Below the pieces are notes generated by a model that made no database searches, was not told where the DNA came from, and saw only the letters and a program-made list of their open reading frames with translations. Source: Polyangiaceae bacterium (GTDB lineage: Bacteria > Myxococcota_A > Polyangia > Polyangiales > Polyangiaceae). Taken from it: a stretch of 64,000 bases of DNA. The stretch's first letter is position 1, and each line of letters begins with the position of its first letter. A program made the translations under genes and the position numbers. The stretch covers positions 128,001 through 192,000 of the forward strand of contig JANRKO010000039.1 of the NCBI GenBank assembly GCA_033763455.1. Direction: 5' to 3'. This document shows, piece by piece, positions 10,307 to 28,221 of this stretch.

Positions 10307-10384
10307 CGGGATTGTGAAGGCCCACCTGATCCGGTAATGCTTTGCCGTTCAGGCAACAGTTCAACCCCAATAGGAGATGCCCGC

Positions 10385-10954
10385 ATGATGCATTCAGTAT
10401 CCACCCGCCGTGTGTTCGCCGCCGTGGCGGCCCTTTCCGTATTGCTCGCCGCTCCGCTTGCTAGCGCACTCGACGCATTCCTTCAGATCGAGGGCGCGGA
10501 GATGAAAGGGGATTCTAAAGACAAAGACTTCAGGGATGCGATCGAAATCGATAGCTTCTCATTTGGCGTTCAGAACACCGGTGCGAGCTCGCCCGGAGCC
10601 GGGAGAGGGCGAAGCGCTCCCAACTTTACCGAGCTTAGCGTCCAAAAGAGCGCGGACTCTGCCAGCACGTATCTTTTCATGGCAGCCGCCAACGGCACGC
10701 TACTCAAGAGTGTGACTCTCTCGCTCAAAAAAAGCGGCGGTGATAAAGGTGGCGTCTTCTACAAAGTCACCCTCAAAGACGCCCAGGTAGCCAGCGTACA
10801 AACCTCAGCAGCCCCCAAAGGCGATGCCGTGCCCACTGAAAGCGTAACCTTTTCGTTCGCGAGCATCATCATCGAATACACCGCCGCTGATCCCAAAGGC
10901 GGACCTGGAAAGAAACATACGTTCAGCTGGGATACGAAAAACGTCAGGCAATAA
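10385..10954 (+). CDS. hcp: Hcp1-family tube-like protein with N-terminal signal peptide
   Basis: DAFLQIEG..KGDSKD...IEIDSFSFGV, DSAS..LF, PTESVTFSF..I..EY, FSWD; preceded by RR + hydrophobic stretch + ASA; AGGAG RBS. Confidence 0.85.
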   Translation: MMHSVSTRRVFAAVAALSVLLAAPLASALDAFLQIEGAEMKGDSKDKDFRDAIEIDSFSFGVQNTGASSPGAGRGRSAPNFTELSVQKSADSASTYLFMAAANGTLLKSVTLSLKKSGGDKGGVFYKVTLKDAQVASVQTSAAPKGDAVPTESVTFSFASIIIEYTAADPKGGPGKKHTFSWDTKNVRQ

Positions 10955-13044: not shown

Positions 13045-13179
13045 AACGCGAACTCTCGGGCTTCCCGGCATTTGGCGCTGTTTTTCGGTACGAGAGGTAC
13101 TTCGCATGACAAGTAACTTGGCCTTCAAGCGGGCGCACACTTGCGTTTGCGGGCTGTTTCGACAACCGTGCAAGTCACT

Positions 13180-15744
13180 ATGGGAATTGGCGGTTTCTCA
13201 CGGAGATTGGGCGGTAAGAGTTGGCTTAGGCTAGGCCTTTGGGGGCTTGTGGCGAGCTTTTCCATAGGAGCCTGTGGCAATTCGGACGAAGAAGAGATCC
13301 AGAAGGCGAAGCTCTCTGAAGGCTGCCTCATTAATAGCGACTGCCGAGCGCCGTTAGCCTGCGCCTTTCGCCGCTGTCACACGGCGTGTGAAACCACCCG
13401 AGATTGTGTCGCTCCGCAACTATGCGTGGCGAGCGACAAGCCATTTTCTGTGTGTCAGCTCGAAGACGAGCGTCAGTGCACGTACCATAGTGAGTGTGCT
13501 GGCTCACAGCTCTGCGGCGTTGACGGAAACTGCCGCGACCAGTGTGCCACTTCACGGGATTGTCTGCGGGATCAGGTATGTACGCAAGGAACCTGCGCTG
13601 AGCCTAGCGAACTTCTGAATGGCAGCTTACCGCCGAGTCCGGCGGCTACAGCCGTTGGAGGCCAGGTGTGTACCTACAACTCGGAATGCCCAGGAGATTT
13701 GGTATGTCGCGCAGGTGTGTGCGGCAAAGAGTGCCTTGACACCAAAGATTGCGCGCCGGGTTACCGCTGTAACGCGCAGAATCGTTGCGAAAGTCCCTTA
13801 CAGGGAAGCGCGGGCGCGGGCAACTTGGCGTCGGGTGGCAGCGCCGGCAGCGGTGGCGGCGGCATGAGTGGAGGCAACCAGAACGCAGGCGGAAGCCCGC
13901 TCACTTCCGATGGTGCCGGAGGTATGAGTGCGGCCACTGGAGGTAGCACTGCCACTGGAGGCAGCGGAGGTGCGGGCCCAGAAGTGTGCCCAGGCGCTGG
14001 CTGGACACGCCCCTGCCAAGCGTGTGCCGACGGCCCTGTCGGTGTCCAAGCCTGTGAACAAAACCAAGCTGGCTTTGCTTGGGGCGCGTGCATCGGCGGC
14101 CAGGCTAGCGAAGCCTGTGATGGGAAGGACAACGACTGCGATGGCACACCGGACAACGGAGTGGGCTTCGAGTGCATCCTCGGGCAGACAGCGCAGTGTA
14201 GCCCAGGCGGCAACTGCGCGAGCATTCAGGGGAGCAAGAGCTGCATCGTCGTCGGCAATCTCTGTAAGTACGGTGCTTGCGCCGCGGGCCTAGAAATCTG
14301 TAACGGTGAGGACGACGACTGCAACGGCACTAAAGACGACGGCGCAGGCATGACGTGCATCCTCGGCTCTTCCCCGAGTGCTTGCACGATTTCTAAAAAC
14401 AACTGTAGCCAACCCGGCATTCCCTCCTGCGATGCGGCTTGCCACCTAAAATGCGCACCCGCCGCCGAGATTTGCGACGGGATTGACAATGATTGCGAAG
14501 GCACCATCGATGTTGTTCCGAACGGTATTCAGTGCAAAAAAGACAGCACCGAGCCGTGCATGGTTCAAGCGTGCAACATGACGCTCACAGGCTCACGCAC
14601 GTGCTCAAGTGGCTGCGCCTGGGGCTCTTGCGTGGTGGCGGATGCCTGCAACGATCTGGATGATTCTTGTGACGGCAGAATCGACGAGGGTTACAAGTAC
14701 GTCGCTGGTGTTTCGGGCGTACTGCTGGCTGGAACGTATAACAACACCGGAGTAGCTAGCGTTCTGGATGGCAACACGGTGTGGGTCGGCTGGACCGACG
14801 CAGCGCTGGGGTCCGACAAGCTTCGAGTCGGCAAGTTTGACGTGGCCACGGGCAGCCCCCAGTCGCTGATTGCGGACGCAGGAGTGGGGTTAAGCTTTGG
14901 GAACTACAATCCCGCCTCGGGCGTCAAGATCGGCAACGACGTTTGGTTTGCCGTGATGGGAGCTAACACCACACAGATTTGGGTAGCGCGCGCTAGCGGT
15001 GGCTCACCGGGCGTGGCTCCGGTGCTCACCACTTGGCAGATCGCCGGTCTGCCGGCTTCCGGCGGCTACTACCGGCTCGGGGCTCTCGCTTCAGACGGCA
15101 CGGATCTCTACATCACATACAGGCTAGCTACGGGTCCGCTCCGCGCAGCGCGAATTTCGACATCCACTCTCTTGGTAACCTGGGACCGCGAACTCACGCC
15201 CTCCGAGCCAGCCCCTGCGGCACTCGCGTTCGAGGGGAGCAGCTTGCACGCCATTTGGTGCGATACCGCCCAGGCCAAGTTGCGCCACGCTCGCTTGTCT
15301 ACAAGTGACGGCGTCCCCACGGTGGCGTCTCATATCGTGGTGAACAGCGAATGCACGGCGCCGGGTAAACGCGAAGCATTCGTGGAATACACAAATGGAG
15401 CACTCTTGACCGTGGCTCGATCCGCGACCTTTACCGCTCAAGTCGCCACACTGTCGTTAACTGGGGTAACGCAATCCACCCAAAGCTTCGCCGTGCCCGG
15501 GCAAAATGCTCTGTACTTTGCGCTCCGCGTTGGCAATACCTCAGCCTTCGCGGTAGGGAGCGAAGCGGGGGTTCGTCGCTACTCACAACAAGGAGTTCTC
15601 GCCAGCTCGGCCACCGAAGGCCCCTCCTTGAGCACCTATTCCGCCAATGGCAGCCTACTTTATCCAGCGGGTGGGCCGGTGAGCATCGGAGTGAATCCGA
15701 CGAATCCAGCGCAAATTGTGATGACCCGACTGCAATGTCCGTGA
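13180..15744 (+). CDS. Large Cys-rich surface lipoprotein with E.CDG.DNDC.G (MopE-like putative metal-binding) repeats and a beta-rich C-terminal domain
   Basis: Lipobox IGAC; Cys repeats; four CDG/CND-DNDC-type repeats; Gly linker; start uncertain (13141 or 13180). Confidence 0.75.
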   Translation: MGIGGFSRRLGGKSWLRLGLWGLVASFSIGACGNSDEEEIQKAKLSEGCLINSDCRAPLACAFRRCHTACETTRDCVAPQLCVASDKPFSVCQLEDERQCTYHSECAGSQLCGVDGNCRDQCATSRDCLRDQVCTQGTCAEPSELLNGSLPPSPAATAVGGQVCTYNSECPGDLVCRAGVCGKECLDTKDCAPGYRCNAQNRCESPLQGSAGAGNLASGGSAGSGGGGMSGGNQNAGGSPLTSDGAGGMSAATGGSTATGGSGGAGPEVCPGAGWTRPCQACADGPVGVQACEQNQAGFAWGACIGGQASEACDGKDNDCDGTPDNGVGFECILGQTAQCSPGGNCASIQGSKSCIVVGNLCKYGACAAGLEICNGEDDDCNGTKDDGAGMTCILGSSPSACTISKNNCSQPGIPSCDAACHLKCAPAAEICDGIDNDCEGTIDVVPNGIQCKKDSTEPCMVQACNMTLTGSRTCSSGCAWGSCVVADACNDLDDSCDGRIDEGYKYVAGVSGVLLAGTYNNTGVASVLDGNTVWVGWTDAALGSDKLRVGKFDVATGSPQSLIADAGVGLSFGNYNPASGVKIGNDVWFAVMGANTTQIWVARASGGSPGVAPVLTTWQIAGLPASGGYYRLGALASDGTDLYITYRLATGPLRAARISTSTLLVTWDRELTPSEPAPAALAFEGSSLHAIWCDTAQAKLRHARLSTSDGVPTVASHIVVNSECTAPGKREAFVEYTNGALLTVARSATFTAQVATLSLTGVTQSTQSFAVPGQNALYFALRVGNTSAFAVGSEAGVRRYSQQGVLASSATEGPSLSTYSANGSLLYPAGGPVSIGVNPTNPAQIVMTRLQCP

Positions 15745-15771
15745 ATCGAGCCTTGCGGGGAGGCCCGGGCC

Positions 15772-17124
15772 CTAAGTCGTTAACCCCGGCACGCCCGTTG
15801 TAGCAAGCGCTACATCGCTCCCAAAAGATGTAACCGGGGAGCCCATGATGTTTGCGATGGATAGCAACACTTGGCTCATGTTGCTGCCCGGGTGCCGCAG
15901 GTGTTGATTGCCGGTCAGCTTGCCGCCCGCTTTGCCGATGAGCATGACTGGGAAATCGGTCATCTGGTGTGTCTTACCCCACGCGGTGTCCGTGCTTGAG
16001 TAGATGAGGCTGTAGTCTAGCAAGTTACCCCCTCCCACGCTGATGCCCTGCATCTTCACGAGCATTTCTGCCAGAGATTCCATCGTAAAAAGCACGCCTT
16101 TGTGGACGCGTGTCTGAATATCTGGGCCGGTGTGTCCGCCAGGATCTTCGTGGCAAATCGTGTCGTGGTAGTCGGCGTTCATGTCAGCGCCAAGGCCTCG
16201 GAAATACACGTGCGCCGCCGGCAACATGAACACATAGCTGCCCACGTTCGTGAGCCCGCAGGAAAGTGCAAGAATCATGAGATCCGTCATCGCGGTATTC
16301 ACGGCTGGGGTGGCCTCCTCGTTCTCATCTGCGTCAACGGTTGGGCGCGTTGGGGAGCCGCAAGCGAGCTGTACAGGAGCCACGAGGCGGGACTCAATGG
16401 CACGGATCCCCTCAAGGTGGCTCTCGAGCCTTTGTTGATCTGCCATGCCGAGCCGCCCACGCAAGGCCGCGCCATCGGCGAGCACGGAATCCAACACACT
16501 CCGCTTAACGCCTAGCAATGGAGAGGCTTGCGGTGTGCTCGTGCCCCCCGGCGCCATTTGCGAAAATAGCCTATCAAACACCACCTTTGGGGCGTATTCG
16601 GGGCGCAAGGGAGCTCCGGGGCCGCGGTGAGAAACCGCGTGCAAGGTGATGGCGCCATCTTCATTCGGCGTAGCTGCTGTAACGCCAACTTCGAGCGAAC
16701 GAAACGGCATCCCCGCGGAGGTGATGTCTGCCACCACCTGATCGATCGACGGACCTCCGGGCGTGGTTGTACCTGGAAGAAAGCCACCCACCGTCGCAGC
16801 AGCGGCGCCGCCCCAATGCGTACCAGCATCCACCAAGCTGCCATACCCTGACACCACGGTGAGATATTCCTTCACATGCGCGAGCGGCATCAACTCAGGG
16901 CTAAGCTGCCAATTGGACCCAGTCGCTTCGGGAATAAACATTCCCGGCAAGACACCGTTACCGAAGAACCACGTCAGATAGCGCACCGGTATCGCCGCAC
17001 CCTGTGCGAACGCTGTGCCATTCCCGTTTAACATGATATCGAGCGTGGGTAATGGCACGGCTACGGCTCCACCCGTGGCGAGCAGGCCCTTCAAAACGTG
17101 GCGTCGGCTCAGAGTATTTTTCAT
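15772..17124 (-). CDS. DUF1552 domain protein with Tat-like signal
   Basis: SRRHVLKG, FFGNGV, SIDQVVA, FDRLF, SVLDSV, LG..D..RLE.HL..IR.IE. Confidence 0.85.
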   Translation of the reverse strand: MKNTLSRRHVLKGLLATGGAVAVPLPTLDIMLNGNGTAFAQGAAIPVRYLTWFFGNGVLPGMFIPEATGSNWQLSPELMPLAHVKEYLTVVSGYGSLVDAGTHWGGAAAATVGGFLPGTTTPGGPSIDQVVADITSAGMPFRSLEVGVTAATPNEDGAITLHAVSHRGPGAPLRPEYAPKVVFDRLFSQMAPGGTSTPQASPLLGVKRSVLDSVLADGAALRGRLGMADQQRLESHLEGIRAIESRLVAPVQLACGSPTRPTVDADENEEATPAVNTAMTDLMILALSCGLTNVGSYVFMLPAAHVYFRGLGADMNADYHDTICHEDPGGHTGPDIQTRVHKGVLFTMESLAEMLVKMQGISVGGGNLLDYSLIYSSTDTAWGKTHQMTDFPVMLIGKAGGKLTGNQHLRHPGSNMSQVLLSIANIMGSPVTSFGSDVALATTGVPGLTT

Positions 17125-18908
17125 GGTTGAGCACCTTCGCTGGTGAGAAAACGGAAGCCTTCGCTTGTCACAATATCGAGAGCAAGTGGCATTAATCTGT
17201 GCCCTCCAGCAGTGAACTTATCGGTGAGTTGCCTCAAGGGAACGTCTGCCGGGGCACTGAGCGCCGAGCCCGTTCCATAGTGATAGAGGGCGCGCACCAG
17301 GCATTCGGTCGTCGCAAGATTGGCGGCCAACGCTTGCCCAAGCCCTCCGGGGCCGTCGAACGCGACACCGTCGAGAGTGCCGGTAGCATCTACGGGCTTA
17401 CCACTTTCTTCGGTGCGATAAGCGCCGATAGCATCGAAGTTTTCCAGGCCAAAACCAAGCGGATCCATCAGCTGGTGGCAACCTGCGCATGCGGGCATAG
17501 TTGCGTGCTGCAGCAGCTTTTCGCGGTGCGACAAGACTACGCCGGGCGGCGCGTCAGGAAGCTTGGTGTCAACGTTGACTGGAGGCGGCGGAATTGTCTG
17601 GCAAAGGAGCTTTTCTCTGATGAACTTGCCGCGCGTGGTCGGGGAAGATTGAACCTGGTTGGCGTAGAGCGAAAGGAAAACACCCGAGGCCAAAAGGCCT
17701 GCCCGCGGGCTATCGGCTGGGGCATCCATCTTTACCAGCGCATCTGAGAGCCCGTCCGTTGGCAATCCGTACAGCTTTGCCAAGTCCAGATTCACGTAGC
17801 GCGTTCGAGTGGTAAGAAGATCCAGCGCACTCGCAGCCGGATCCTGCATGGTCCCTTCAAAGAGAGCTCTGACCTCAGCTCCCATGGCAGACGCTAAGCT
17901 GGGCGTAAAGTCCGGAAATAGCGCGGTATCTTTGGCAATGCTCGAAACGCGATCGAGGTCATAGTAATCGGAAGCAAAGCCGCCCACAGTAGCTTTTCCT
18001 TGTGGACTATTGAGCATCCGCATCGCCTCAGCTCGCACTCCATCCACTGTTGTCAGCGTGCCGGCTTCGGCTGCTTTCAGTAAAGCATCGTCAGGCGGCG
18101 CGCCCCAAAGGAAGAAGGATAGCCGGCTAGCGACTTCCAAGTCTGTGGCCTGAAACAGTCCAGCCTGCCCGTTCACCGGCACGCCAAGTTCTGGGCGGTA
18201 AAGAAAACTGAGCGACTGAAGCAGCGCAGAGGCCGACCACCGCGGGCCTGCATAAGGATCGGTAAGCGCTTGGGCCGAAGCTTCTGCCACCCCTACGTAA
18301 CGCAGCACTTCCTCTGGAGCGAGCGTGCGCCGAAACACCAGGCGCCCAAAACGCTGCACGAAATCCCCCGTACACGCATCGTTGGTTACCGTTTTGGGTT
18401 CACAACCCACAAATGCTGAGCGTTTTGCGACATCGCCAAACACTTGGTCCAAAGCGTCATCCACCGCCTCTTGATACTGTTCGACGCCTCTAAGCGAAGT
18501 GACCACGGTGCGGGCGCCAACTACTGCCAACCCGTTCGCGCGCCCATCGGCTTGAACCGGCTTGATGTTGACCGAACCGAGCAGCGCTCGGAGTGAATTG
18601 TTGAATTGTTCCGTTGTTAACCGCCGGAAAGCCTGCGGACTGGCGGGAAACGCGACAGCCGTGGAAACGCCAGGCCCAGGTGGGGTGCCGGGAAGAGGCG
18701 TTCCCGTGGCTCCGCTCGTCGGTGTTGCCGCTGAGCCGCCGGGCATTGTGGTGACATCGACGGTAGTGGCTGGACCTGGCGTGCCCTGAGCTCGACCCGA
18801 CGAAGGACCGCCGCCAGCAACTGCCGTGCAACCCATACTAAGCGGTAGACCTACGGCGACAGCGAACTTTTGGCACCAATGCGCGCGACGTTGAGCAAAC
18901 TTCGGCAT
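17121..18908 (-). CDS. DUF1587/1595/1592/1588/1585 domain lipoprotein with CxxCH
   Basis: RRLT..QFNNS, FLYRPE, ASRLSFFLW..PPD, SPTTRG, CAGCH..MDPLGFGLENFDAIG. Confidence 0.85.
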   Translation of the reverse strand: MPKFAQRRAHWCQKFAVAVGLPLSMGCTAVAGGGPSSGRAQGTPGPATTVDVTTMPGGSAATPTSGATGTPLPGTPPGPGVSTAVAFPASPQAFRRLTTEQFNNSLRALLGSVNIKPVQADGRANGLAVVGARTVVTSLRGVEQYQEAVDDALDQVFGDVAKRSAFVGCEPKTVTNDACTGDFVQRFGRLVFRRTLAPEEVLRYVGVAEASAQALTDPYAGPRWSASALLQSLSFLYRPELGVPVNGQAGLFQATDLEVASRLSFFLWGAPPDDALLKAAEAGTLTTVDGVRAEAMRMLNSPQGKATVGGFASDYYDLDRVSSIAKDTALFPDFTPSLASAMGAEVRALFEGTMQDPAASALDLLTTRTRYVNLDLAKLYGLPTDGLSDALVKMDAPADSPRAGLLASGVFLSLYANQVQSSPTTRGKFIREKLLCQTIPPPPVNVDTKLPDAPPGVVLSHREKLLQHATMPACAGCHQLMDPLGFGLENFDAIGAYRTEESGKPVDATGTLDGVAFDGPGGLGQALAANLATTECLVRALYHYGTGSALSAPADVPLRQLTDKFTAGGHRLMPLALDIVTSEGFRFLTSEGAQP

Positions 18909-18953
18909 AACGGTTTCAGGTCCAGGTAAGAGGGCGAGATTTCCCTCTTTGGC

Positions 18954-18986
18954 TGGTTAGTCGCCGACGGCGTACGATCGGCTACG
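18954..18986 (-). promoter_or_regulatory. Putative ECF sigma promoter, copy 1 (CGTAGCCGAT-N11-GGCGACTAACCA)
   Basis: Lies 46 nt upstream of the DUF1592 gene; identical half-sites and spacing at 20260 and 22744. Confidence 0.7.
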
Positions 18987-19026
18987 CGCGAAACCGAAAA
19001 AACAATCGAGCACGGGATTTGGGCGC

Positions 19027-20217
19027 TCAGGGTTTTCTTTCCTCCGAAAGTCGTAACAACAGCTTCTGAGCTTGCGGTGCAAATGAGCCGTGGGGGTGCA
19101 ACGACAAGTAGCGATTCAGCAATTGTCGTGCGTTTTCTTGTGAGCTGTGTTGCACAGCGAGGCTCGCGGCGGCAAAGCGCGCCATCTCAGCTTGAGACGT
19201 GCCAGGATATTGCGAAGCTACCTCCTGATAACGTCGGATCCCTTCGGAGAAGCGACCTTGCGCCACCAGATCTTCGGCGGAACGAAGGGCTTCCCCCGCC
19301 TTTACCCGGACATCTGGCGTTTTCGGGGCAGATAACACTTCTGTGGCCTTCGATTGTGGTTCGTTAGCAACTCCGGGCGTTGGCGTGGACGGCGCCTCTG
19401 ACCCATGCGGCGGCGCTCCTGTGGAAGACGCGGCTGGTGCGGACAGCACCGCTTTGGGTGGCTGACTTGCACCGGCGCTGCTCCAACCGTCCCCGGCTCT
19501 GAGCGTTACTTTTACGCCGCCCGCACGCGGCAGCACCTCCACAACACCCTCTGAAACCTTTACGGAGCTCCAATTGGCTTCTCGCCGCACGGTGAAATGA
19601 GTGCCCACCACACGGATTTGAGCCTCTTTGGTCCACACCGAAAAGCCCTCCCCGCCCTTTAAGTGTCGCACGGAGAGCGCAACCTTCCCCGCTACCAGCT
19701 GGAGCGTACGGCCCCCCGAGGAGAGCCGCGAGCCTGGCTCAGCCGTTACCCTGGAACCATCTTGCAACTCAAGCTCCGCCGGCACTTCACCACCCACTTC
19801 GAGCTCATTGCCTGGCAGCACAACACCAGCAACAGCCCGACCGCCGCTCGAAACCTGCCCAGACATCACGCGAGCGAAGCCTTCGCCAGTCTCGGCAACT
19901 TGCGCGGAGTCACGCAGCAAAAACACTAAAAATGCCCCGGCGGCTGCTAGAGCGAAGGCACCCCCGGCCCAGGCCAAAGGACGGTAACCCCGACTCACTC
20001 GGATCCCGCTCGGCCGGGCTTCTGCTAACGCTGCTCGCACCTCTGCAAGTTGCTTCGCCTCAGGCACAGGGGTGGCTTCGAACTCCGCGACACGATCGAG
20101 CACGGTTTCGAGCGCGCGCAGGTTTTGAGCGGATGTAGGATCCCCTGCGGCACGGCCGAGCTCTTCCGAACGCGCCTTTCGGACTCCTTCCCAACTCTGG
20201 CCTTTAGGTGTTTTCAT
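19027..20217 (-). CDS. FecR-domain anti-sigma factor with C-terminal TPR-like helices
   Basis: Single TM, LQDGSRV, IRVVGTHFTV, VKVSEGVVEV, YL..HPHG.FA. Confidence 0.85.
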   Translation of the reverse strand: MKTPKGQSWEGVRKARSEELGRAAGDPTSAQNLRALETVLDRVAEFEATPVPEAKQLAEVRAALAEARPSGIRVSRGYRPLAWAGGAFALAAAGAFLVFLLRDSAQVAETGEGFARVMSGQVSSGGRAVAGVVLPGNELEVGGEVPAELELQDGSRVTAEPGSRLSSGGRTLQLVAGKVALSVRHLKGGEGFSVWTKEAQIRVVGTHFTVRREANWSSVKVSEGVVEVLPRAGGVKVTLRAGDGWSSAGASQPPKAVLSAPAASSTGAPPHGSEAPSTPTPGVANEPQSKATEVLSAPKTPDVRVKAGEALRSAEDLVAQGRFSEGIRRYQEVASQYPGTSQAEMARFAAASLAVQHSSQENARQLLNRYLSLHPHGSFAPQAQKLLLRLSEERKP

Positions 20218-20259
20218 AGGATCCCGAGCCCAACGTGGGCGGAATTTCCCTCTTTGGCA

Positions 20260-20292
20260 TGGTTAGTCGCCAGCGCCACGATATCGGCTACG
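20260..20292 (-). promoter_or_regulatory. Putative ECF sigma promoter, copy 2
   Basis: Same bipartite motif, 43 nt upstream of the FecR gene. Confidence 0.7.
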
Positions 20293-20346
20293 CCCTCAGC
20301 CGAAAAATCTCCAAAGCCGCGATCTCGCGTCGGTTCTCGCTTCTGT

Positions 20347-20979
20347 TCAGAGCTCATCGGCATTCACCTCGCGCATCACCTGAGAAACCACGTCGCTGTC
20401 CCTATCCCCGAGCTCCTGCTTGAGTTGGCTGAGCACTTTGCGACGTGCAAAATAGAGACGGGCGCGCGTGGCGGCCTTGCTGGCACCCATCATCCTGGCC
20501 ACTTCTTCCACGGCGTGCCCATAGAGCACCCGCAACACGAAAGCTGTGCACTGTTCCGGAGAGAGGGTATCCAAGATGGAACGGACAATATTCAGCATAT
20601 CGCGCGCTTCGAGCGTCGCTCCAGGCTCCAAGAAGTTCGCCTCTTCCGTCAGACGCTGATGCGCCATCTCTGCACGCTGGCGCCGAGTTTTTCGACGCAG
20701 ATGATCTTTCACCACATTGGCACAGACCCCCCGCACCCAGGTACTCGGCTGAGATTCTTGTGCAAAATGAGCGAGCCCGCGCGTGACGCGGATCATGGCC
20801 TGTTGTTGCAGCTCTTCCAAATCGTCAATCCGCCCAAACGTTAGCTGAATCAATGTTGCACGAATAAACGAGTAATAGTGCAGTAAGAACCGCTCCTGCG
20901 CCTGGAGATCACCTGCTATGGCCTGAGCGGCGAGGCGCGGCTCAATCTCGGAGGTTTTTTCTGGTTGAGTCATGCGCAC
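20347..20979 (-). CDS. ECF RNA polymerase sigma factor
   Basis: Region 2 (STWVRGVCAN...DHLRR) and region 4 (LSPEQ.TAFVL...EVA..MG....TRARL..AR). Confidence 0.9.
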   Translation of the reverse strand: MRMTQPEKTSEIEPRLAAQAIAGDLQAQERFLLHYYSFIRATLIQLTFGRIDDLEELQQQAMIRVTRGLAHFAQESQPSTWVRGVCANVVKDHLRRKTRRQRAEMAHQRLTEEANFLEPGATLEARDMLNIVRSILDTLSPEQCTAFVLRVLYGHAVEEVARMMGASKAATRARLYFARRKVLSQLKQELGDRDSDVVSQVMREVNADEL

Positions 20980-20988
20980 GCTGAGCCC

Positions 20989-22035
20989 TTACAGGTTCAT
21001 GACCCCACCAAGTGCTAAGCGGAGGCGCAGGTGCCCGGTGTCGAGCGCCGTTTCCCGAGCAACCATAACTTTTCCCGCCACTGGGAGTATTTCGACGCCA
21101 GCCTCCCAGCTCAAAGAAAAACGCGGGGACAACCGGTGCTGGTTCCAAAGGCTTGCCCGAAAGAAAGGCGCGAACGTGTTCGCTAAATGGCGCGCATTAC
21201 CCGCCCCATTCACCGCCAACGAGCTCTTTACCCAAGTGGCGCCCGCCTGCCCGCCCCAAAAAATGCTCCAGGCCGCTCCATCCGACAGACGGCCAGGACG
21301 AACGTCTACTCCAAGCCGAGCCGTCTGATTCTCGTACACGCCAAGAGGCGTCGAACGGGAGCTTATCCGCCCCACTTCCAAAACGCCACCCACAAAGTGA
21401 CTCTGCCAGCCGTAACCTGAAACCGCTCCAACGTCCAATTCTAAAATAGCATCTAATGCGGTCAATCCAGCCACATTTGCCATAATTAGGAAGCGCTCAG
21501 GCTCGACTGGAGCACGCTCAGCCTTTTGATTGGTTTGGGCCTTCTGCTCAACGGGCTTGCGCAGCTCTGATGGTGGAGCTTGAGGTGTCGCAGTTGGCAA
21601 GTTACTCGCCGCCGCAGCGATTTCCCCGCGCACCAAGAGGGCTAGATACCTGCCAGCGTCGTCCACCTTGGAGGGCAATTTCTCGGACGTTCGCGCCGCG
21701 CTGTTGTCCGCACGGCGCAGGTCGAAAATATCGATATCAAGATCGATCCCCCCAGGAGCAACATTGAGAAAAACGACCAAATCCGCTGAATGCGCACGTC
21801 GGATCTCAGCGAGCTCTCGCTGGATATCGCGGCGCAGAGGCCGTGCGGTAGCATCAAAATCGCGCAGGTAGATCTGAATAGCTTCTCCAGCCGTTGCGAA
21901 CTTATCGCCGTCGAAGCCGGCTCCGAACAGCACAAGCGCGCGGACTCCCTCTGACTTCGCCGCCACCGAGGGCGACCAGAGCCACGCGGAAACCAAAAGA
22001 CATAGGCTCAGGCCGACGGCGCGTAGGCGGCTCAT
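20989..22035 (-). CDS. Hypothetical exported protein with C-terminal amphipathic beta strands (possible outer-membrane protein)
   Basis: Signal peptide MSRLRAVGLSLCLLVSAW; alternating beta pattern in the C-terminal half; ATGA overlap with the upstream gene. Confidence 0.6.
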   Translation of the reverse strand: MSRLRAVGLSLCLLVSAWLWSPSVAAKSEGVRALVLFGAGFDGDKFATAGEAIQIYLRDFDATARPLRRDIQRELAEIRRAHSADLVVFLNVAPGGIDLDIDIFDLRRADNSAARTSEKLPSKVDDAGRYLALLVRGEIAAAASNLPTATPQAPPSELRKPVEQKAQTNQKAERAPVEPERFLIMANVAGLTALDAILELDVGAVSGYGWQSHFVGGVLEVGRISSRSTPLGVYENQTARLGVDVRPGRLSDGAAWSIFWGGQAGATWVKSSLAVNGAGNARHLANTFAPFFRASLWNQHRLSPRFSLSWEAGVEILPVAGKVMVARETALDTGHLRLRLALGGVMNL

Positions 22036-22652
22036 AGCTCGGCAGCCCACACTTCCACCTCGGAAAAGCTGAGCGTGTGGCGTTCTTGGCTAGTGTCCGT
22101 ATCGTTTGCAAGAGCACACAGAGACGCGTCGACCTGAGGCTGATCCAAGCGGCGTTCGACGCGAATCACACTCCCCTTCACCAAAGCGGGAGCCTCTCGA
22201 AAGAGGTCGATTTCAAAACGCTCGGGGCCACACAGAACATTCGCAGGATTGAGCAATTTCCCACTGTTCGCTTGGTAGTCGAAGACCTTGGCCCCTGAAG
22301 GCCCCTCCAACACTACTACGTTGAGGTCCCGAGCGCGGCCTTGGCAACAATCCTTACGGTTCCAGAGCACTACGCGCCGAATCAACTCGGGACGCGCAAG
22401 GGCGACCTCCCACCATTCAAAAACCTCGCTGTCGCCCGTGGTTGCGCTAAAGGTTGCAGCATTGCCGTCTATCGCCAGCCGAGCATCAAAAGCATTTGAA
22501 CTCTGCGAAGCGACACCACTTCGGGCCACCTCGACGAGCGGCACATCCTCGAGTGCATGCACGGTTTGCGTACACCCGACCGCACCCAAACAAAGTGGCA
22601 GCATCCATCGAACGCCTAGCCGAACCCCTTCAGCCGACCAAGCGTGAACCAT
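22032..22652 (-). CDS. Lipoprotein with F-type lectin / F5-8 type C domain
   Basis: Lipobox AVGC; ASQSS...LAIDGN...WWEVAL...WNRKDCC..R...LSFSEVEVW. Confidence 0.8.
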   Translation of the reverse strand: MVHAWSAEGVRLGVRWMLPLCLGAVGCTQTVHALEDVPLVEVARSGVASQSSNAFDARLAIDGNAATFSATTGDSEVFEWWEVALARPELIRRVVLWNRKDCCQGRARDLNVVVLEGPSGAKVFDYQANSGKLLNPANVLCGPERFEIDLFREAPALVKGSVIRVERRLDQPQVDASLCALANDTDTSQERHTLSFSEVEVWAAEL

Positions 22653-22743
22653 CGCTTCATGAGTTTAGCGGCTCGTTGGGTGCACGCAACGCGAAGAGTT
22701 AGCGAAATCAAGCTCTTGCGCTTGATGCCACAGGCCCGCTCGT

Positions 22744-22776
22744 TGGTTAGTCGCCTGGGTCCGCAGATCGGCTACG
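22744..22776 (-). promoter_or_regulatory. Putative ECF sigma promoter, copy 3
   Basis: Same bipartite motif upstream of the first gene of the lectin-ECF operon. Confidence 0.7.
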
Positions 22777-22874
22777 GTCGAAATGACGATTTGTTAACTT
22801 TAGCGCCCGGCACAGCGAATGGACCTTCTTAGTGGGCTGAATCGCCCGGGCCATCGACGAGCGAACCCCGCCGC

Positions 22875-23612
22875 TCACGTCTCGAACGGCAGCCGTACGG
22901 TGGCGACCGCGCCGCCTTCCGGATGATTCTTGAGCTCCAGCTTTCCGCCGTAGGATTCGACAATTCCACGGCTCACGTAGAGGCCAAGGCCAGCTGCGCC
23001 CTGGGTTTTCCGTGTCGTAAAGAAGGCATCAAACAGGCGTGGTTGCACCTCTTCGCTCAAGCCCGGGCCGTTGTCACACACTTCCAGGTAAATCCAATTC
23101 TTGTCCTGAAACGTCCGCAAGATAACGGTGTTGTCGTCTCGCTTACGTCCGAGGGATTCGCAGGCTTGTGCGGAATTCAACAACAGATTAAGCGTTACCT
23201 GGGCGAGGTGCGCTTCGCAGATCTGAATCGGCCGTGTCTCCAACAATTCGTGCACAATCCGACATACGGGCTGCACCTGGCGCGCGGCTAACCTCACGGT
23301 GAGCAGCACCACATCGTTGATTTGAAGAGCACGCGGCGCTTGACTCGGCGAAAGTACCAAACTGCGAAAATCTCGAAGCGCTCGCGAAACTCTACCAGTA
23401 GCCTGCAAAGCTTCTTGAGCGTGCGGCAAGAGTTCCGCCAGAACAGGATTGGCCGGGGCGAGCTCGCGCATCCGCGCGACCAGGTGATCCAGGCTGTCTG
23501 TCCCGGGCGTCAACTGGTCGGTAGCTTCCACCACGAAGCCTTCCCCTAAAAGGCCCACCTTGGTGATCTGATCGGCGCGCATTCTGCGAGAAAAAGTAGG
23601 GTCTTTGAGCAC
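22875..23612 (-). CDS. Histidine-kinase-like ATPase lacking a sensor domain and the H-box His
   Basis: QV.LNLLLNS, DNGPG, LFDAFFTT, GLGL; H-box position reads GFVVEATDQ; GTG start with AAGGAG. Confidence 0.75.
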   Translation of the reverse strand: MLKDPTFSRRMRADQITKVGLLGEGFVVEATDQLTPGTDSLDHLVARMRELAPANPVLAELLPHAQEALQATGRVSRALRDFRSLVLSPSQAPRALQINDVVLLTVRLAARQVQPVCRIVHELLETRPIQICEAHLAQVTLNLLLNSAQACESLGRKRDDNTVILRTFQDKNWIYLEVCDNGPGLSEEVQPRLFDAFFTTRKTQGAAGLGLYVSRGIVESYGGKLELKNHPEGGAVATVRLPFET

Positions 23613-23713
23613 GGATTCTCCTTCCGCAGCCCAATACCACAGCGGTTGCAGCATGTCGCGCCGCAACCTTGCCTGCACCAGGCTAAAGCCAACCCTACAG
23701 CACTTCCGCCGCT

Positions 23714-23729
23714 GACACACGCCGGAAAC
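23714..23729 (+). promoter_or_regulatory. GACAC-N6-GAAAC box
   Basis: Nearly identical, including the following CAAACCTCA, to the site upstream of ureD. Confidence 0.5.
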
Positions 23730-24021
23730 CAAACCTCACCCATAGCGGCACTCGCGACAAGACGATCCACATCTTGGCCTTGGCAATGCGCGCCAGGAGT
23801 TAACGAGCGTAGGGCGTGAGTGTTTAGGCCGCATCTTATCGCAACTGCGCAGCGCAGGCACGACGCCTAATCAGCGGACAGCCACTGGCTAACTTGCACA
23901 CTCTGGTTTCACCTGCGGGAACACTCGCCCGAGCTAGTTAAAGTGGAAGCAAGCGGAGCTTTTCAACCAGCTCTCGGGGACTCACGAAAGTCACGGAAAG
24001 TGCATCCGTCCGCATCGAATA

Positions 24022-27000
24022 TCAAACGGCCTCCTCAGGGACCTCGGGAACACTGGGCGAGACGGGTTCCGGCAAGGGTTCCGGCAAGGGTTCCGGCAAG
24101 GGTGGCGTCAACAGCACCAGCCAACCCCAGCGCAGCCAACCGAGGAGACGCGAGGCCAACCAAAGCGACCACACGAGCATGAGTCCGCGCCACACCCAAA
24201 TCGAAGTTCCGACTACCATCGGCGTTGGGAGCGAAGCGGGCGACCGATCCGTGTACCAAACCAGGCGTGCCGCTGTGCTTCCTGCTCCCTCGACCTGCAT
24301 ATCCGGCACCACAACGAGCCCCGAATACACAGCTGTGCCGAGCGTTCCCAGCATCACCAGAGTCGCTATCACCAAACCCATAATAATGAGGCGACGCCAC
24401 CAGCGAGCACGGAGACCCACTCGTTCGAACCAAGCGAACGCGAAAAACCAAGCCGGAACAAGCACTGCCAGGGGGGCGGGAATTTGAGTCAGCCCGAGAG
24501 CGAGTCCCAACCATTCAAGACGACGGAGCCTTGAGCCTGGAAGGTGTCCCAGGACAAACGCGGCTAAGCACACAACGGCGAGATAACCCCAAAACAAGAC
24601 CGAAGGTCCGAAATCAGGACCCGCAAGGGCCAGCAACCACCGCTCCTGGTTGGGCTCTGCGATCACCACGACGTTGGCCGCGCCGCCTTCGAGCACTACC
24701 TCGGACGCTTGCCAGAACGTGCTGATCCCTTGCGGCTCTTGCCACGCGAGCCGCACCTCCGAAAGACCGGGACTGAGCCCGATCGCGACAGCTCCGCCCT
24801 CAAGGCGCGAAGCACGTGCTTCGCCAGCCACCGTAAGTTCCTGCAAGACCGCCCCCTTCGGCAATGTAACCCGCTGGGTTCCACCCGAACTTGAACGGAC
24901 CTGAAACGTCAGGCTGGAACGCGTGAGCCGTTCACCTGGAGTGATGGTCAGTGTTGCGCCTTCGATCGTTTTGGAGGTGCCCGGCACTGGCAACGGACGG
25001 GACACGGCAATCTCGATCTTTTCGCCCGCAAAGGGGCGCCATAGCGGCCGCCAACGCTGCTCAAGATCATGTCGCACAGGAGCCAAGCCGGTGGCCTTGC
25101 AGTGCCAAACAAAGCCACAGTCGAGACTCCACACTTCGGCGTAGTTCGTGCCGACGGCAGCGCTCAACAACAGGCGATCCCGCGGTTCGAGAGTGCTGGT
25201 CCAAACGAGCTCGGTTTGCCCACGAGGCAATGAAGCGAGCACGCTTCCGCCTTCCACCGGTACATCGGCAACAGTGACGCGTTCGCCGAGCAAAAGCGGG
25301 ACTCGCACCAAAACTGGCAAATCAGTGGACGTTTCGCGCACCAGACGAGACCGGACGACCCAGCTAACACCGAGCTCGACCTCGCGTGTGAGCGTGAGCC
25401 ACGGGGGCAAACTTGGAGTGCCTGCTTCACTTCCGGCCGCTGCACTCGTCCCCCGGTCGCGGCGTGTAAACGTGACGGCGCCTTCGAGTCGTCCATCCCG
25501 ACCCACCCCGCTCACATCCCACCCTGGTGCCGTGACGACCACGCGTTGCGGCTTGTCGGCAAGCTCCAGCGCTAGATCGTTTACAAGCAACGGACCCTTC
25601 ATCACGACCTGTTGTCGACCCGCAGGGATACGGGCGACCAGCACACCACCCTCGAGCGCCACAGGGGCATGCGCATCGCTCCCGAGCGCTACATTTTCCG
25701 GCACCCAAGCCACGACGGGGCCAGGCAACCTGAGCCGAGTTGCAGCGCCGGCATGCACATCGAGAACTATTGTGAGCGTCGAACCTGTGATCTTCACCTC
25801 GGCACGGGACACGGAAAGGCAGTTGGTGCAGGCGGGCGACAAAGTAAGGCGGCGCGCCAGCTCTGACAGCCGTTCATCGGTGACCTCAGCAGCTGGGCTT
25901 TTACTGCTTTCCGCATTCGCGTGCGTCGAGTAGCCGAGCACGGCGAGCATGGCCCCGATCAGGATCGATGTAATGAGGACCTGAGACGGCGATTCTGGTG
26001 GCGGAGTGCCCGGACGCTGCTCCGTATTCCCCGTTGAGCGGGACCTCCACCAGGCAAGCTTGGCCAAAAGGAGCCCAAACCCAACAACACCTAACACTCG
26101 CAGTACTTCGAGGAGTCTCACGCACCAGGGGGGCAAAAGCCAGAGCCTGAATTGATGCTCACGCGCAACGGGACCGTTCCAGATGAGGCTCTCGGTGTTC
26201 CAAGACCAATGCGGCACGCCGGGGCCCGTCTGCACCACAGCTTTTGGATCTTGGGCGAGGTTTTGGTACGAGTACCCAGCTTTGGATTTCGAAGCCCAAC
26301 GCGAGGAAACATTATCCGCTTGGCCCTTCGGAGGCTCCGGCGCTGCATCCGCGGCGACCTCCTTTTCGTCGGCTTGCTCGAGCGGTGCCACAGCTTGCGG
26401 AACCGGTGCGCGCTTCTCCCGGGCTCCCCCGAGAGTTGACCACGAACTCGCACCCTCGCTGCTATTTCCGCCGTTGACGAGCAGTGGATGCACGGCGGCG
26501 CGCAAATGGGTCGCCGCGAAGGGTACTGCCAGAACCACCCACGCACCTGCAACCACGAGCGATACCGCGATCAGCAGCGGACGCAAAAACGGGGGCACCG
26601 TTGCCTTGCGAAGCGCGACCACCACCAAGAGGGCAGCCCAAATCCAAAACGGGGCGTCACTCTCGCCATGAGCGGCGACAAGAGTCGTAAAGCCAAGCAG
26701 CGCGAGCCCACGGCCGCCGAGCTTGAGCGCAGCGAGAGTCACCAACAAAAGATAGAAAATTGCAAAAAGGTCCCAGCTTGAGAGCCAGGAGCTCGGTGCG
26801 GAATCCACGCCACTTGCCCCAAAAAAGAGCCAGCCTGGCGGGAGGTGCAAGGAAGCGCTCAGGCTTTGCACGTCTTCGCTCCAGCCGTTAGCCGGAAGCT
26901 TTATCGCACGCGGCAAGCGAAATTCTGCTTCGAGATTCAGAATCGAATTGCGCAATTCAACTCCGCCTGGCCCGGCTGACACGAGCGATGTCACGAGCTC

Positions 27001-28221
27001 GGGGTTGCCATCCACGCGGATTGTCCCCGGCAACTGGGCTCGAAGCTCCAGCCGATGCTCGCGCTTCACGCTCCCGGAGAGCACGTCCTTAACCGTGTAC
27101 CCGTGTCCGTCAAAGTCTAACCACAGGTCTCGTACGAGGTTGATTTGGTTGGGTGGCGGCTCCGCGTTACCTCGACGTAAGGTAGAAAACGTGAGCGCGT
27201 CGTTAGCTCGCAACTCAAACGCAGCGAGATTTTTCCAGCTTTCGTCAAGCCCCGTGCGCGCTGGGTCAATTTCCCGGGCGCCCACGATGGCCACTTCTCT
27301 GAGTTCGGAAGAGGGCGCCCAAACCCATATTTCGGTGGCTGGCCACGGCTCCGGGCGGGGCTGCAGGAGGATGCGCTCCGGGGCACCTTCTGCTCGCGCC
27401 TGCACCTCGACCGTGTGCGTTCCGGCGCGGAGTTGCACCACTAGTTCACCGGACGTTTCGAGCCGCGCAGGCAATTCAGAAGTCAACGCAAGCGGAACCG
27501 TCTTTGGCAACAAAACGTTCCCGAGCGGCGCCTCACGCGCTCGCCCCGAAGCTCGCAGCACCAGGCGTGTCGTGATACGCAGGGGAACTCCGTCGTCGAT
27601 GCGACGGAATACTTCCATTGAGAGTGAGTCTGTAGCGGCCCCCTCTGAGGCAGCGCTCGCTCCAAGCCACAAGCGCCCGTCACCTTCGCGTCGCGGAGCT
27701 AGCACCCGCTTACCTTCCACCGTGAGTGCCACAACACCGGTTCGCGCGCCGATAGCCAGCGTTTCCGGCATCTCATTCCAGGAGAATTCGCCCTCGATGC
27801 GATGATTGCCAGGAGTGAGCCAAGTGGTTGGTTCGCCCCCCTCCGCCAACACCACCACATCCTTGCCATCCAACTTAACGGCTTCAGGCCAAACGCCGTC
27901 GGCTCCAGGCAGCGTCACAGGCGCCAAAGCATCGGTGCGAACGTAGAGCACAAACCGTCCTTGTTTGGCGCCCACTTCAAGCTCCAAGAACCCAGGCCAG
28001 ACGCAGCTCCGTTCCTGATCAGAACCCAGGACGCACTCTCTCTCCCCCTGATCCCAGAGCACCCACGGGACCCAATCCCGAAGCTCGGGTGGCACCTCTG
28101 CCAGGCTGAGGGGTCTCTTCTCAACGCCTGTGTCGGCGTGGCTGAACGGGGCAAACACGAGCGTGGCGAGCGCAACGACAATGCCCAAAGCAAACCTTAA
28201 CATCCCAAACATGACACCCAT
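24022..28221 (-). CDS. Large integral membrane protein of unknown function with two similar halves
   Basis: 1399 aa ORF; signal peptide, soluble beta-rich domain, TM bundle, then a second such unit; PLPE repeat at the C-terminus. Confidence 0.75.
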   Translation of the reverse strand: MGVMFGMLRFALGIVVALATLVFAPFSHADTGVEKRPLSLAEVPPELRDWVPWVLWDQGERECVLGSDQERSCVWPGFLELEVGAKQGRFVLYVRTDALAPVTLPGADGVWPEAVKLDGKDVVVLAEGGEPTTWLTPGNHRIEGEFSWNEMPETLAIGARTGVVALTVEGKRVLAPRREGDGRLWLGASAASEGAATDSLSMEVFRRIDDGVPLRITTRLVLRASGRAREAPLGNVLLPKTVPLALTSELPARLETSGELVVQLRAGTHTVEVQARAEGAPERILLQPRPEPWPATEIWVWAPSSELREVAIVGAREIDPARTGLDESWKNLAAFELRANDALTFSTLRRGNAEPPPNQINLVRDLWLDFDGHGYTVKDVLSGSVKREHRLELRAQLPGTIRVDGNPELVTSLVSAGPGGVELRNSILNLEAEFRLPRAIKLPANGWSEDVQSLSASLHLPPGWLFFGASGVDSAPSSWLSSWDLFAIFYLLLVTLAALKLGGRGLALLGFTTLVAAHGESDAPFWIWAALLVVVALRKATVPPFLRPLLIAVSLVVAGAWVVLAVPFAATHLRAAVHPLLVNGGNSSEGASSWSTLGGAREKRAPVPQAVAPLEQADEKEVAADAAPEPPKGQADNVSSRWASKSKAGYSYQNLAQDPKAVVQTGPGVPHWSWNTESLIWNGPVAREHQFRLWLLPPWCVRLLEVLRVLGVVGFGLLLAKLAWWRSRSTGNTEQRPGTPPPESPSQVLITSILIGAMLAVLGYSTHANAESSKSPAAEVTDERLSELARRLTLSPACTNCLSVSRAEVKITGSTLTIVLDVHAGAATRLRLPGPVVAWVPENVALGSDAHAPVALEGGVLVARIPAGRQQVVMKGPLLVNDLALELADKPQRVVVTAPGWDVSGVGRDGRLEGAVTFTRRDRGTSAAAGSEAGTPSLPPWLTLTREVELGVSWVVRSRLVRETSTDLPVLVRVPLLLGERVTVADVPVEGGSVLASLPRGQTELVWTSTLEPRDRLLLSAAVGTNYAEVWSLDCGFVWHCKATGLAPVRHDLEQRWRPLWRPFAGEKIEIAVSRPLPVPGTSKTIEGATLTITPGERLTRSSLTFQVRSSSGGTQRVTLPKGAVLQELTVAGEARASRLEGGAVAIGLSPGLSEVRLAWQEPQGISTFWQASEVVLEGGAANVVVIAEPNQERWLLALAGPDFGPSVLFWGYLAVVCLAAFVLGHLPGSRLRRLEWLGLALGLTQIPAPLAVLVPAWFFAFAWFERVGLRARWWRRLIIMGLVIATLVMLGTLGTAVYSGLVVVPDMQVEGAGSTAARLVWYTDRSPASLPTPMVVGTSIWVWRGLMLVWSLWLASRLLGWLRWGWLVLLTPPLPEPLPEPLPEPVSPSVPEVPEEAV

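Follow-up and report, generated by a model that had tools for sequence, protein, structure and literature searches.

We propose that a bipartite motif occurring three times in a 64,000-nucleotide (nt) stretch of a Polyangiaceae genome (contig JANRKO010000039.1, positions 128,001 to 192,000; hereafter the window) is the promoter CGTAGCC-N16-CGACTAA, which would be read by the extracytoplasmic function (ECF) sigma factor encoded between its copies and would drive three neighbouring units only. We put the probability of this reading, which is drawn from sequence comparison, at about 0.87. It is supported because the motif matches the ECF promoter consensus in the proper register, agrees with two specificity residues of the sigma factor and co-occurs with the clade to which this sigma factor belongs; from these lines of evidence we infer both transcription from the sites and its dependence on the local sigma factor. 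An earlier sequence-only reading of the window, which had taken GTAGCC-N16-CGACT for a -35/-10 pair of an ECF promoter, is supported on the same grounds.

A motif confined to one gene cluster

On the minus strand of the window, a pattern search found CGTAGCCGAT-N11-GGCGACTAACCA exactly three times, at the positions from which the sequence-only reading had started (18954, 20260 and 22744), and none of 100 shuffled windows contained a match. As had also been described there, the 22 flanking positions are identical in all three copies, while the N11 spacers are constant in length and unlike in sequence (CGTACGCCGTC, ATCGTGGCGCT and CTGCGGACCCA). The copies are:

18954..18986, minus strand: copy 1, predicted ECF promoter of the DUF1592-DUF1552 pair (-35 box 18986-18980, -10 box 18963-18957, predicted +1 about 18950)
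20260..20292, minus strand: copy 2, predicted extra promoter of fecR (-35 box 20292-20286, -10 box 20269-20263, predicted +1 about 20256)
22744..22776, minus strand: copy 3, predicted ECF promoter of the lectin > barrel > ECF unit (-35 box CGTAGCC 22776-22770, -10 box CGACTAA 22753-22747, predicted +1 about 22740)

Every copy lies upstream of a gene on the same strand, as first noted, with start codons at 18908 (DUF1592, copy 1), 20217 (FecR-TPR, copy 2) and 22652 (F5/8-type lectin-like, copy 3). The lectin-like gene heads a unit that continues with the gene of a 353-amino-acid (aa) protein and the ECF gene, and the predicted leaders measure 88, 39 and 42 nt for copies 3, 2 and 1, respectively. 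The minus-strand order is histidine kinase, copy 3, lectin-like, 353-aa protein, ECF, copy 2, FecR-TPR, copy 1, DUF1592 and DUF1552.

The search for further copies that the sequence-only reading had called for was extended to the whole genome (92 contigs, 6,563,627 bases or 6.56 Mb, with spacers of 10-12 allowed). It returned the same three sites without mismatch, none with one to three mismatches, and a next best site with four. With a weight matrix built on seven sites the three copies scored 35.4 bits; the next genome site reached 20.4 bits, below the 23.6 bits attained in the reversed-genome control, and a wider regulon was rejected on this count, as it was when a one-mismatch pattern gave two extra sites in this genome against three control matches. 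The motif is a real element and strictly local to one gene cluster. This holds also within the very large expansion of output-type genes in this genome, since among its 81 DUF1592-like and 77 DUF1552-like frames the matrix scan placed the motif only at the pair of this cluster.

Comparison with the ECF promoter code and co-occurrence with the sigma clade

The pan-ECF promoter consensus is TGTAACC at -36 to -30 and CGTCTAA at -13 to -7 (Table S1 of Todor et al., 2020, PMC7776599). Against it, CGTAGCC-N16-CGACTAA agrees at 11 of 14 positions when read on the gene strand and at 8 of 14 on the opposite strand, in all three copies; 11 of 14 was reached by 23 of 20,000 random 43-nt pieces of the genome. 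The 16-nt spacing falls within the 16-18 nt of ECF promoters, and the sites are oriented with their target genes and lie shortly upstream of them, the exception being a site in the genome G025 that overlaps an ATG. The residues of the local sigma factor, numbered as their E. coli RpoE equivalents after alignment through the clade profile, include Arg171, Asp84, Arg56, Ala172, Tyr175 and Phe176. In the measured preferences, Arg171 goes with C at -31 (0.88) and Asp84 with CG at -13/-12 (0.62, top of 16) (PMC7776599), and the motif has both. The combination of Asp84 with Arg or Lys at 171 was present in two of the 32 scored ECF-like frames of the genome (some of them weak or partial matches), namely in the local sigma factor and in its nearest paralogue; depending on the method, 24-33 ECF-like frames are counted in this genome. 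The sigma clade lacks Arg176, the -35 determinant (Tyr in 17, Phe in 4 and a gap in 1 of the 22 members), and the base at -35 is variable, being G here, T in G025 and L043, and A at copy 2 in contigs from three of four sequencing runs. Thus the motif resembles the general ECF code in its boxes, its 16-nt spacer and the specified positions -31 and -13/-12, and departs from it in the G at -32 and the A at -11, the latter contrary to the rule for the Lys56 position (Todor et al., 2020, PMC7776599).

Orthologous sigma factors are rare. They were found in four of 401 genomes of the order at E 1e-45 and in four of 383 genomes of the family, where they stood far above the rest; as 7-8 candidates were scored per genome, these counts are lower bounds. 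Two unpublished genomes (G327 and G404) enter the genome tallies only. Three metagenome loci and 22 proteins were also assigned to the clade. Within the clade matches reached E 1e-88 or better, and the best match outside it, among the best candidates scored in the 383 family genomes, was E 2e-34. In the rest of the phylum, again with 7-8 candidates scored per genome, three matches were obtained in 380 other genomes at E 1e-42, none of them with the motif.

The congeners G001 and G003 and the locus L042 carry the whole cassette with two sites each, one ahead of the lectin gene and one ahead of the DUF1592 gene, and the distant loci of G025, L043 and L044 carry one site each, at the sigma gene. 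A site ahead of the sigma factor's own unit, where it would be autoregulatory, is conserved together with the sigma factor. The congener G002, which is without this clade, has no motif site. The sites of L043 and L044 are free of circularity because these loci were located through a protein search and not through the motif. A 16-base pattern matched nine of 401 genomes, the four with orthologous sigma factors and five with single matches, against six control matches; no ECF gene lies within 1.5 kb of the five additional matches. In G017, TTTAGCC-N17-CATCTAA stands 16 nt ahead of an in-frame GTG and agrees with the consensus at 11 of 14 positions (counted by hand). Its sigma factor has Glu84, for which CA is the top measured preference (0.35, with CG at 0.33; PMC7776599), so that the shift of the box to CA with Glu84 would fit the code, as a single case.

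Several observations weigh against the proposed promoter. The pattern and the sigma profile were derived from the same four genomes that matched, and the tally of co-occurrence is therefore partly circular. The weight matrix did not detect the G017 variant. The three matches in L043, L044 and G017 are weakened by an overlap, the TAG of the -35 box doubling as the stop codon of the preceding gene. In G025 (L026:8461-8492) the -10 box runs into the sigma gene, its final base being the A of the ATG, and no in-frame ATG, GTG or TTG occurs between that ATG and the conserved first helix; a transcript from this site would therefore lack the sigma start, and a simple autoregulation model leaves the site unexplained. 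A basic residue at the Lys56 position is said to favour T at -11 (PMC7776599), a rule that fails for the local sigma factor (Arg56, A at -11), for G025 (Arg, A) and for L043 (Lys, C), and Ala172 is uninformative in the mutagenesis data (T 0.31, C 0.30). Finally, the sensing role that we assign below to the lectin-like lipoprotein and the barrel is drawn from gene order and predicted fold.

The poor placement of the G025 site to drive its own sigma gene would be accounted for if the promoter were read by another sigma factor of the genome, the local one being a target and not the driver. One candidate is the nearest paralogue, on contig C45, which shares Asp84 and the basic character of residue 171. 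We regard this as improbable: the C45 locus is without the motif (best score 8.7 bits), and across genomes the motif follows the local clade, being absent from G002 together with the clade and becoming CA in G017, where the local sigma factor has Glu84.

A position over a start codon, as in G025, is also possible for the operator of a dimeric repressor or activator, and the motif contains two imperfect inverted repeats, TAGCCG-N15-CGACTA and GTAGCC-N14-GGCGAC, each of which matches at 5 of 6 positions in all three copies. The free orientation open to an operator was not observed, however, since all copies at all loci are co-oriented with their genes. Moreover, neither dyad includes the conserved GAT and TAA, the second one drops to 4/6 or 2/6 in relatives, and no shared one-component regulator was evident by eye in the open reading frame lists of the orthologous loci. 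The upstream side is rich in A and T in eight of nine sites (8-13 of 16 bases), as in a directional promoter. We consider an operator just as improbable on this evidence.

On the gene strand, a T-rich tract spans about -51 to -46; it lies on the upstream side only, at window 18997-19002 and 20302-20307 and at the congener sites, and is absent in G025. This tract could be a UP-like element.

Comparable arrangements were sought at other sigma factors. Similar motif triplets were not convincing at any of the 29 other ECF loci of this genome, and three paralogous ECF-FecR loci showed no clear doubled 8+8 motif. At distant ECF genes, TA(A/G)CC occurred within -260 to +30 in seven of 44 loci from outside the clade, none with the present -10 box at 16 nt; this test of a shared TAGCC half is weak because most of the 44 loci belong to another ECF lineage without FecR. 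As a separate observation, one highly conserved ECF lineage with the sigma-4 sequence LTVRTRLFY and Met at RpoE position 84 was present in 25 of 26 family members (loci L050-L075) and on contig C74 of this genome.

Copy 2 as a duplicate of the copy 1 region

The description of the motif as triplicated stands for the number of sites and needs qualification as to their origin, since the three sites are two independent ones plus one duplicate. Copies 1 and 2 are alike over about 95 nt (local alignment score 103, against a maximum of 55 in 1000 shuffles), which indicates that they form one duplicated segment, and the flanks upstream and downstream of the duplicate are each significant with the boxes excluded. 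In the congeners ECF and fecR overlap directly, whereas here they are 129 nt apart, and this gap found no match in any of the four other genomes searched. Two features lie here:

20233..20327, minus strand: segment of about 95 nt duplicated from the copy 1 region, inside the 129-nt gap between ECF and fecR (E 4e-10, 81% over 70 nt)
20214..20357, minus strand: open frame of 47 codons, starting within the end of the ECF gene (where fecR starts in the congeners), its stop overlapping the fecR ATG

We infer from the congeners that the copying went from copy 1 to copy 2, and the copy before the inhibitor gene is likely to have arisen by a recent local duplication. As a duplicate that is absent from the congeners, copy 2 is not independent evidence for the motif. 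The stretch GCCAAAGAGGGAAAT downstream of both copies, which had already been recognized as a shared leader, is inherited because the segment was duplicated; copy 2 has one additional T before it. A separate promoter for the anti-sigma gene thus appears to be a lineage-specific addition and not a general feature of the module. The original proposal, that the sigma factor drives its own operon, its anti-sigma gene and the DUF1592/DUF1552 pair, is upheld by the matrix scan as a local regulon and has to be restricted to this lineage as regards the anti-sigma gene. The 47-codon frame may be a translational relay that keeps the coupling after the insertion, or may be due to chance; its derivation from a decayed 5' end of fecR was rejected as not significant (p 0.10).

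Contigs from public sediment and soil runs were aligned to the locus. Copy 2 is spanned by independent contigs from runs X1 and X4, which excludes an assembly error. Between copies 1 and 2 all 22 box bases are identical but only 3 of 11 spacer bases, and this difference points to selection after duplication. A diverged X1 contig over copy 1 follows the same pattern: its 21 substitutions in 168 nt include 4 of 11 spacer bases and none of the 22 box bases. The contrast with the 16 of 96 other non-coding bases changed gives a Fisher p of 0.028, a value to be read with caution, since the contigs necessarily end at shared words and this biases the comparison towards an unchanged -10 side.

The duplication would also be compatible with a motif that acts as RNA, by folding in the leader or by binding a protein, or that is a functionless scar of recombination or duplication, and the downstream stretch shared by copies 1 and 2 folds into a hairpin. 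For an RNA element, however, neither an Rfam match (at E up to 1 in 15000-24500) nor a fold common to ten sites was found. Recombination sites have matched cores, unlike the differing spacers seen here, of which only 3 of 11 bases agree between copies 1 and 2, and copies 1 and 3 have been kept in place in the congeners despite diverged flanks. Both forms of this explanation are very improbable in our judgement, and we retain the ECF promoter. In three genomes, the predicted DUF1592 leader forms a hairpin at its 5' end in spite of differing sequence (window 18925-18946, L023:4973-5013 and the equivalent in L024; computed with no shuffle control).

In the congener G001, fecR and the DUF1592 promoter are separated by an inserted gene of the opposite strand, which encodes a 392-aa ATPase-like protein (L024:8031-9209). 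The motif remains with DUF1592 after this insertion, and the DUF1592-DUF1552 pair therefore has its own promoter there.

Proposed signalling route and related systems

The genes of the cluster and the histidine kinase gene ahead of it, all on the minus strand, are predicted to encode the following:

22875-23732, minus strand: histidine kinase gene, preceding copy 3
22032..22652, minus strand: predicted lipoprotein with an F5/8 type C (galactose-binding-like) domain (PF22633 E 8e-10, PF00754 E 3e-7)
20989..22050, minus strand: 353-aa protein without Pfam family, characterized by structure model and fold search
20347..20979, minus strand: ECF sigma factor, 210 aa (TIGR02937, 73 bits against a cut-off of 42.9)
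19027..20217, minus strand: FecR-like predicted anti-sigma factor, 396 aa (PF04773 E 6e-13; TPR_16 E 5e-5, below the curated cut-off)
17121..18908, minus strand: DUF1592-family protein (PSD3, PSD5, PSD4, PSCyt3 and PSD2 in Pfam), with one CxxCH at residue 474
15772..17124, minus strand: DUF1552 (HXXSHH) protein with a Tat-signal-like N-terminus, its start overlapping the DUF1592 stop

The lipoprotein has a lipobox-like AVGC at residues 24-27, its start codon being uncertain. The model of the 353-aa protein (pLDDT 81, pTM 0.50, from a six-sequence alignment) comprises an alpha/beta N-terminal domain, a low-confidence linker and a C-terminal barrel; in the fold search OmpA, NspA and OmpW barrels matched best (E 8e-7) and TolB matched too, so that the C-terminal domain is predicted to be an OmpA-like outer-membrane barrel. 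Its look-alikes come in the majority from Myxococcota. The FecR-like protein consists of an N-terminal part of about 80 aa, a single hydrophobic helix from residue 83 or so, the FecR domain and a C-terminal TPR part. A model of the complex between the sigma factor and FecR residues 1-80 scored 0.84, the best control 0.00, with runs agreeing in at least 74% of contacts and a partner pLDDT of at least 70. This is consistent with an anti-sigma domain in these residues; in a benchmark, 51 of 78 solved pairs and 2 of 108 mismatched ones attained the mark, which sigma/anti-sigma pairs may pass through likeness to solved pairs.

On this layout, the N-terminal part of FecR would hold the sigma factor inactive at the membrane. 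Its release would follow an envelope signal, for which the lipoprotein and the small outer-membrane barrel are the most likely sensors, and would proceed through the periplasmic FecR-TPR part; the free sigma factor would then amplify its own lectin-barrel-sigma operon from copy 3 and produce the exported DUF1592-DUF1552 output from copy 1. In this lineage only, surplus anti-sigma factor made from copy 2 would sharpen the shut-off. As to the nature of the signal, a carbohydrate is a weak best guess, prompted by the lectin domain and by the carbohydrate-linked contexts reported for PSCyt genes. A wider possibility, which we advance tentatively and at clearly less than even odds, is a receptor-free form of cell-surface signalling, in which the OmpA-like barrel and a sugar-binding lipoprotein would replace the TonB-dependent receptor and signal through FecR-TPR, the private promoter would switch one of about 80 DUF1592-DUF1552 pairs, and the output promoter, copied before the anti-sigma gene, would add negative feedback.

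FecI, FecR and FecA form a well-known cell-surface signalling mechanism. The present cassette shares with it a sigma factor followed by a membrane regulator with a FecR domain; unlike there, no TonB-dependent receptor was found among the 19 window proteins scanned (8420-33268; the 1399-aa protein and three others are without Pfam family), and the operon instead encodes a predicted OmpA-like barrel and a lectin-like lipoprotein. In the ECF classification, the FecI-like groups are ECF239-243 (PMC7826278). A closer resemblance is to ECF267, described from Sorangium and Chondromyces with one to three protein kinases nearby and with promoter motifs that are "not conserved" (Casas-Pastor et al., 2021, PMC7826278). 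Common to both are a myxobacterial ECF, a FecR-like anti-sigma factor fused to TPR at the +1 position (the TPR match being below the Pfam cut-off here) and the lack of a TonB-dependent receptor. The window differs by its clear motif, by the barrel, lectin and DUF1592-DUF1552 genes, and by the lack of a Ser/Thr kinase, as no Pkinase domain but only the histidine kinase was found among the same 19 proteins; the G025 orthologue has one protein kinase 2.6 kb downstream of the sigma gene. We therefore claim likeness to ECF267, as judged from its published description, and not membership, the kinase feature being absent from the window. The -10 box is also that predicted for ECF272, CG(A|T)CTAA, a group that differs in being gammaproteobacterial and in having an RskA-like anti-sigma factor and the -35 element TTTAAACCTTT (PMC7826278).

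In Myxococcus xanthus, DdvS and DdvA control a CRISPR-Cas output and need CarD-CarG (PMC6061681). DdvA is likewise a one-pass, TPR-bearing anti-sigma factor, and DdvS drives four promoters (GTAA-n16-CGT) that are clustered at the ddv locus itself, close to AT-rich DNA; the differences are the CHAT domain of DdvA in place of FecR and the sequence GTAG-n18-CGA here. At one DdvS promoter the +1 is reported to clash with an annotated ATG in a way similar to G025, but a TTG follows downstream there and none does in G025. CarD-family frames of 1218, 214 and 167 aa occur in the present genome, and one that was inspected (197 aa) was without an AT-hook tail by eye.

An autoregulated ECF with clustered local promoters is already known in principle from DdvS, which limits the surprise, and the novelty of the finding is modest; the motif is very probably the cognate ECF promoter. 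No paper on the cassette or the motif was found in the literature searched, and none that joins ECF sigma factors, FecR, DUF1592 and myxobacteria, although the supplements of the ECF classification may bear on novelty. TAGCC, GTAGC and AGCCGA are absent from the portion of the PMC7826278 supplement searched, whose remainder and figures, with the ECF Hub, may bear on novelty too. The present pair provides a concrete, testable combination of sigma factor and promoter for myxobacterial FecR-TPR ECFs, a group whose promoter the published classification gave as not conserved. Being unique in the genome, it could therefore serve as an orthogonal switch. It would also give one of about 80 DUF1592 paralogues a defined route of induction, and with it an entry point to a large family of unknown function, and copy 2 is a clean natural case of a promoter copied ahead of an anti-sigma gene.

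Scans for sigma-70 promoters (1 site, 1.9 expected) and terminators (8, 10.2 expected) gave nothing beyond chance. The locus of the nearest paralogous ECF and FecR-like genes (C45:108502-115668, L083) is flanked by at least four DUF1592-DUF1552 pairs and has no motif copy. Among the neighbours of the cassette, a 1399-aa multi-pass membrane protein without Pfam family is encoded at 24022-28221 on the minus strand. On the plus strand, a cysteine-rich predicted lipoprotein of 867 aa with MopE-like, putatively metal-binding repeats lies at 13141-15744, convergent on DUF1552, and a lone Hcp-family gene, whose product has a signal-peptide-like N-terminus, lies at 10337-10954, with no further type VI genes among the neighbours scanned.

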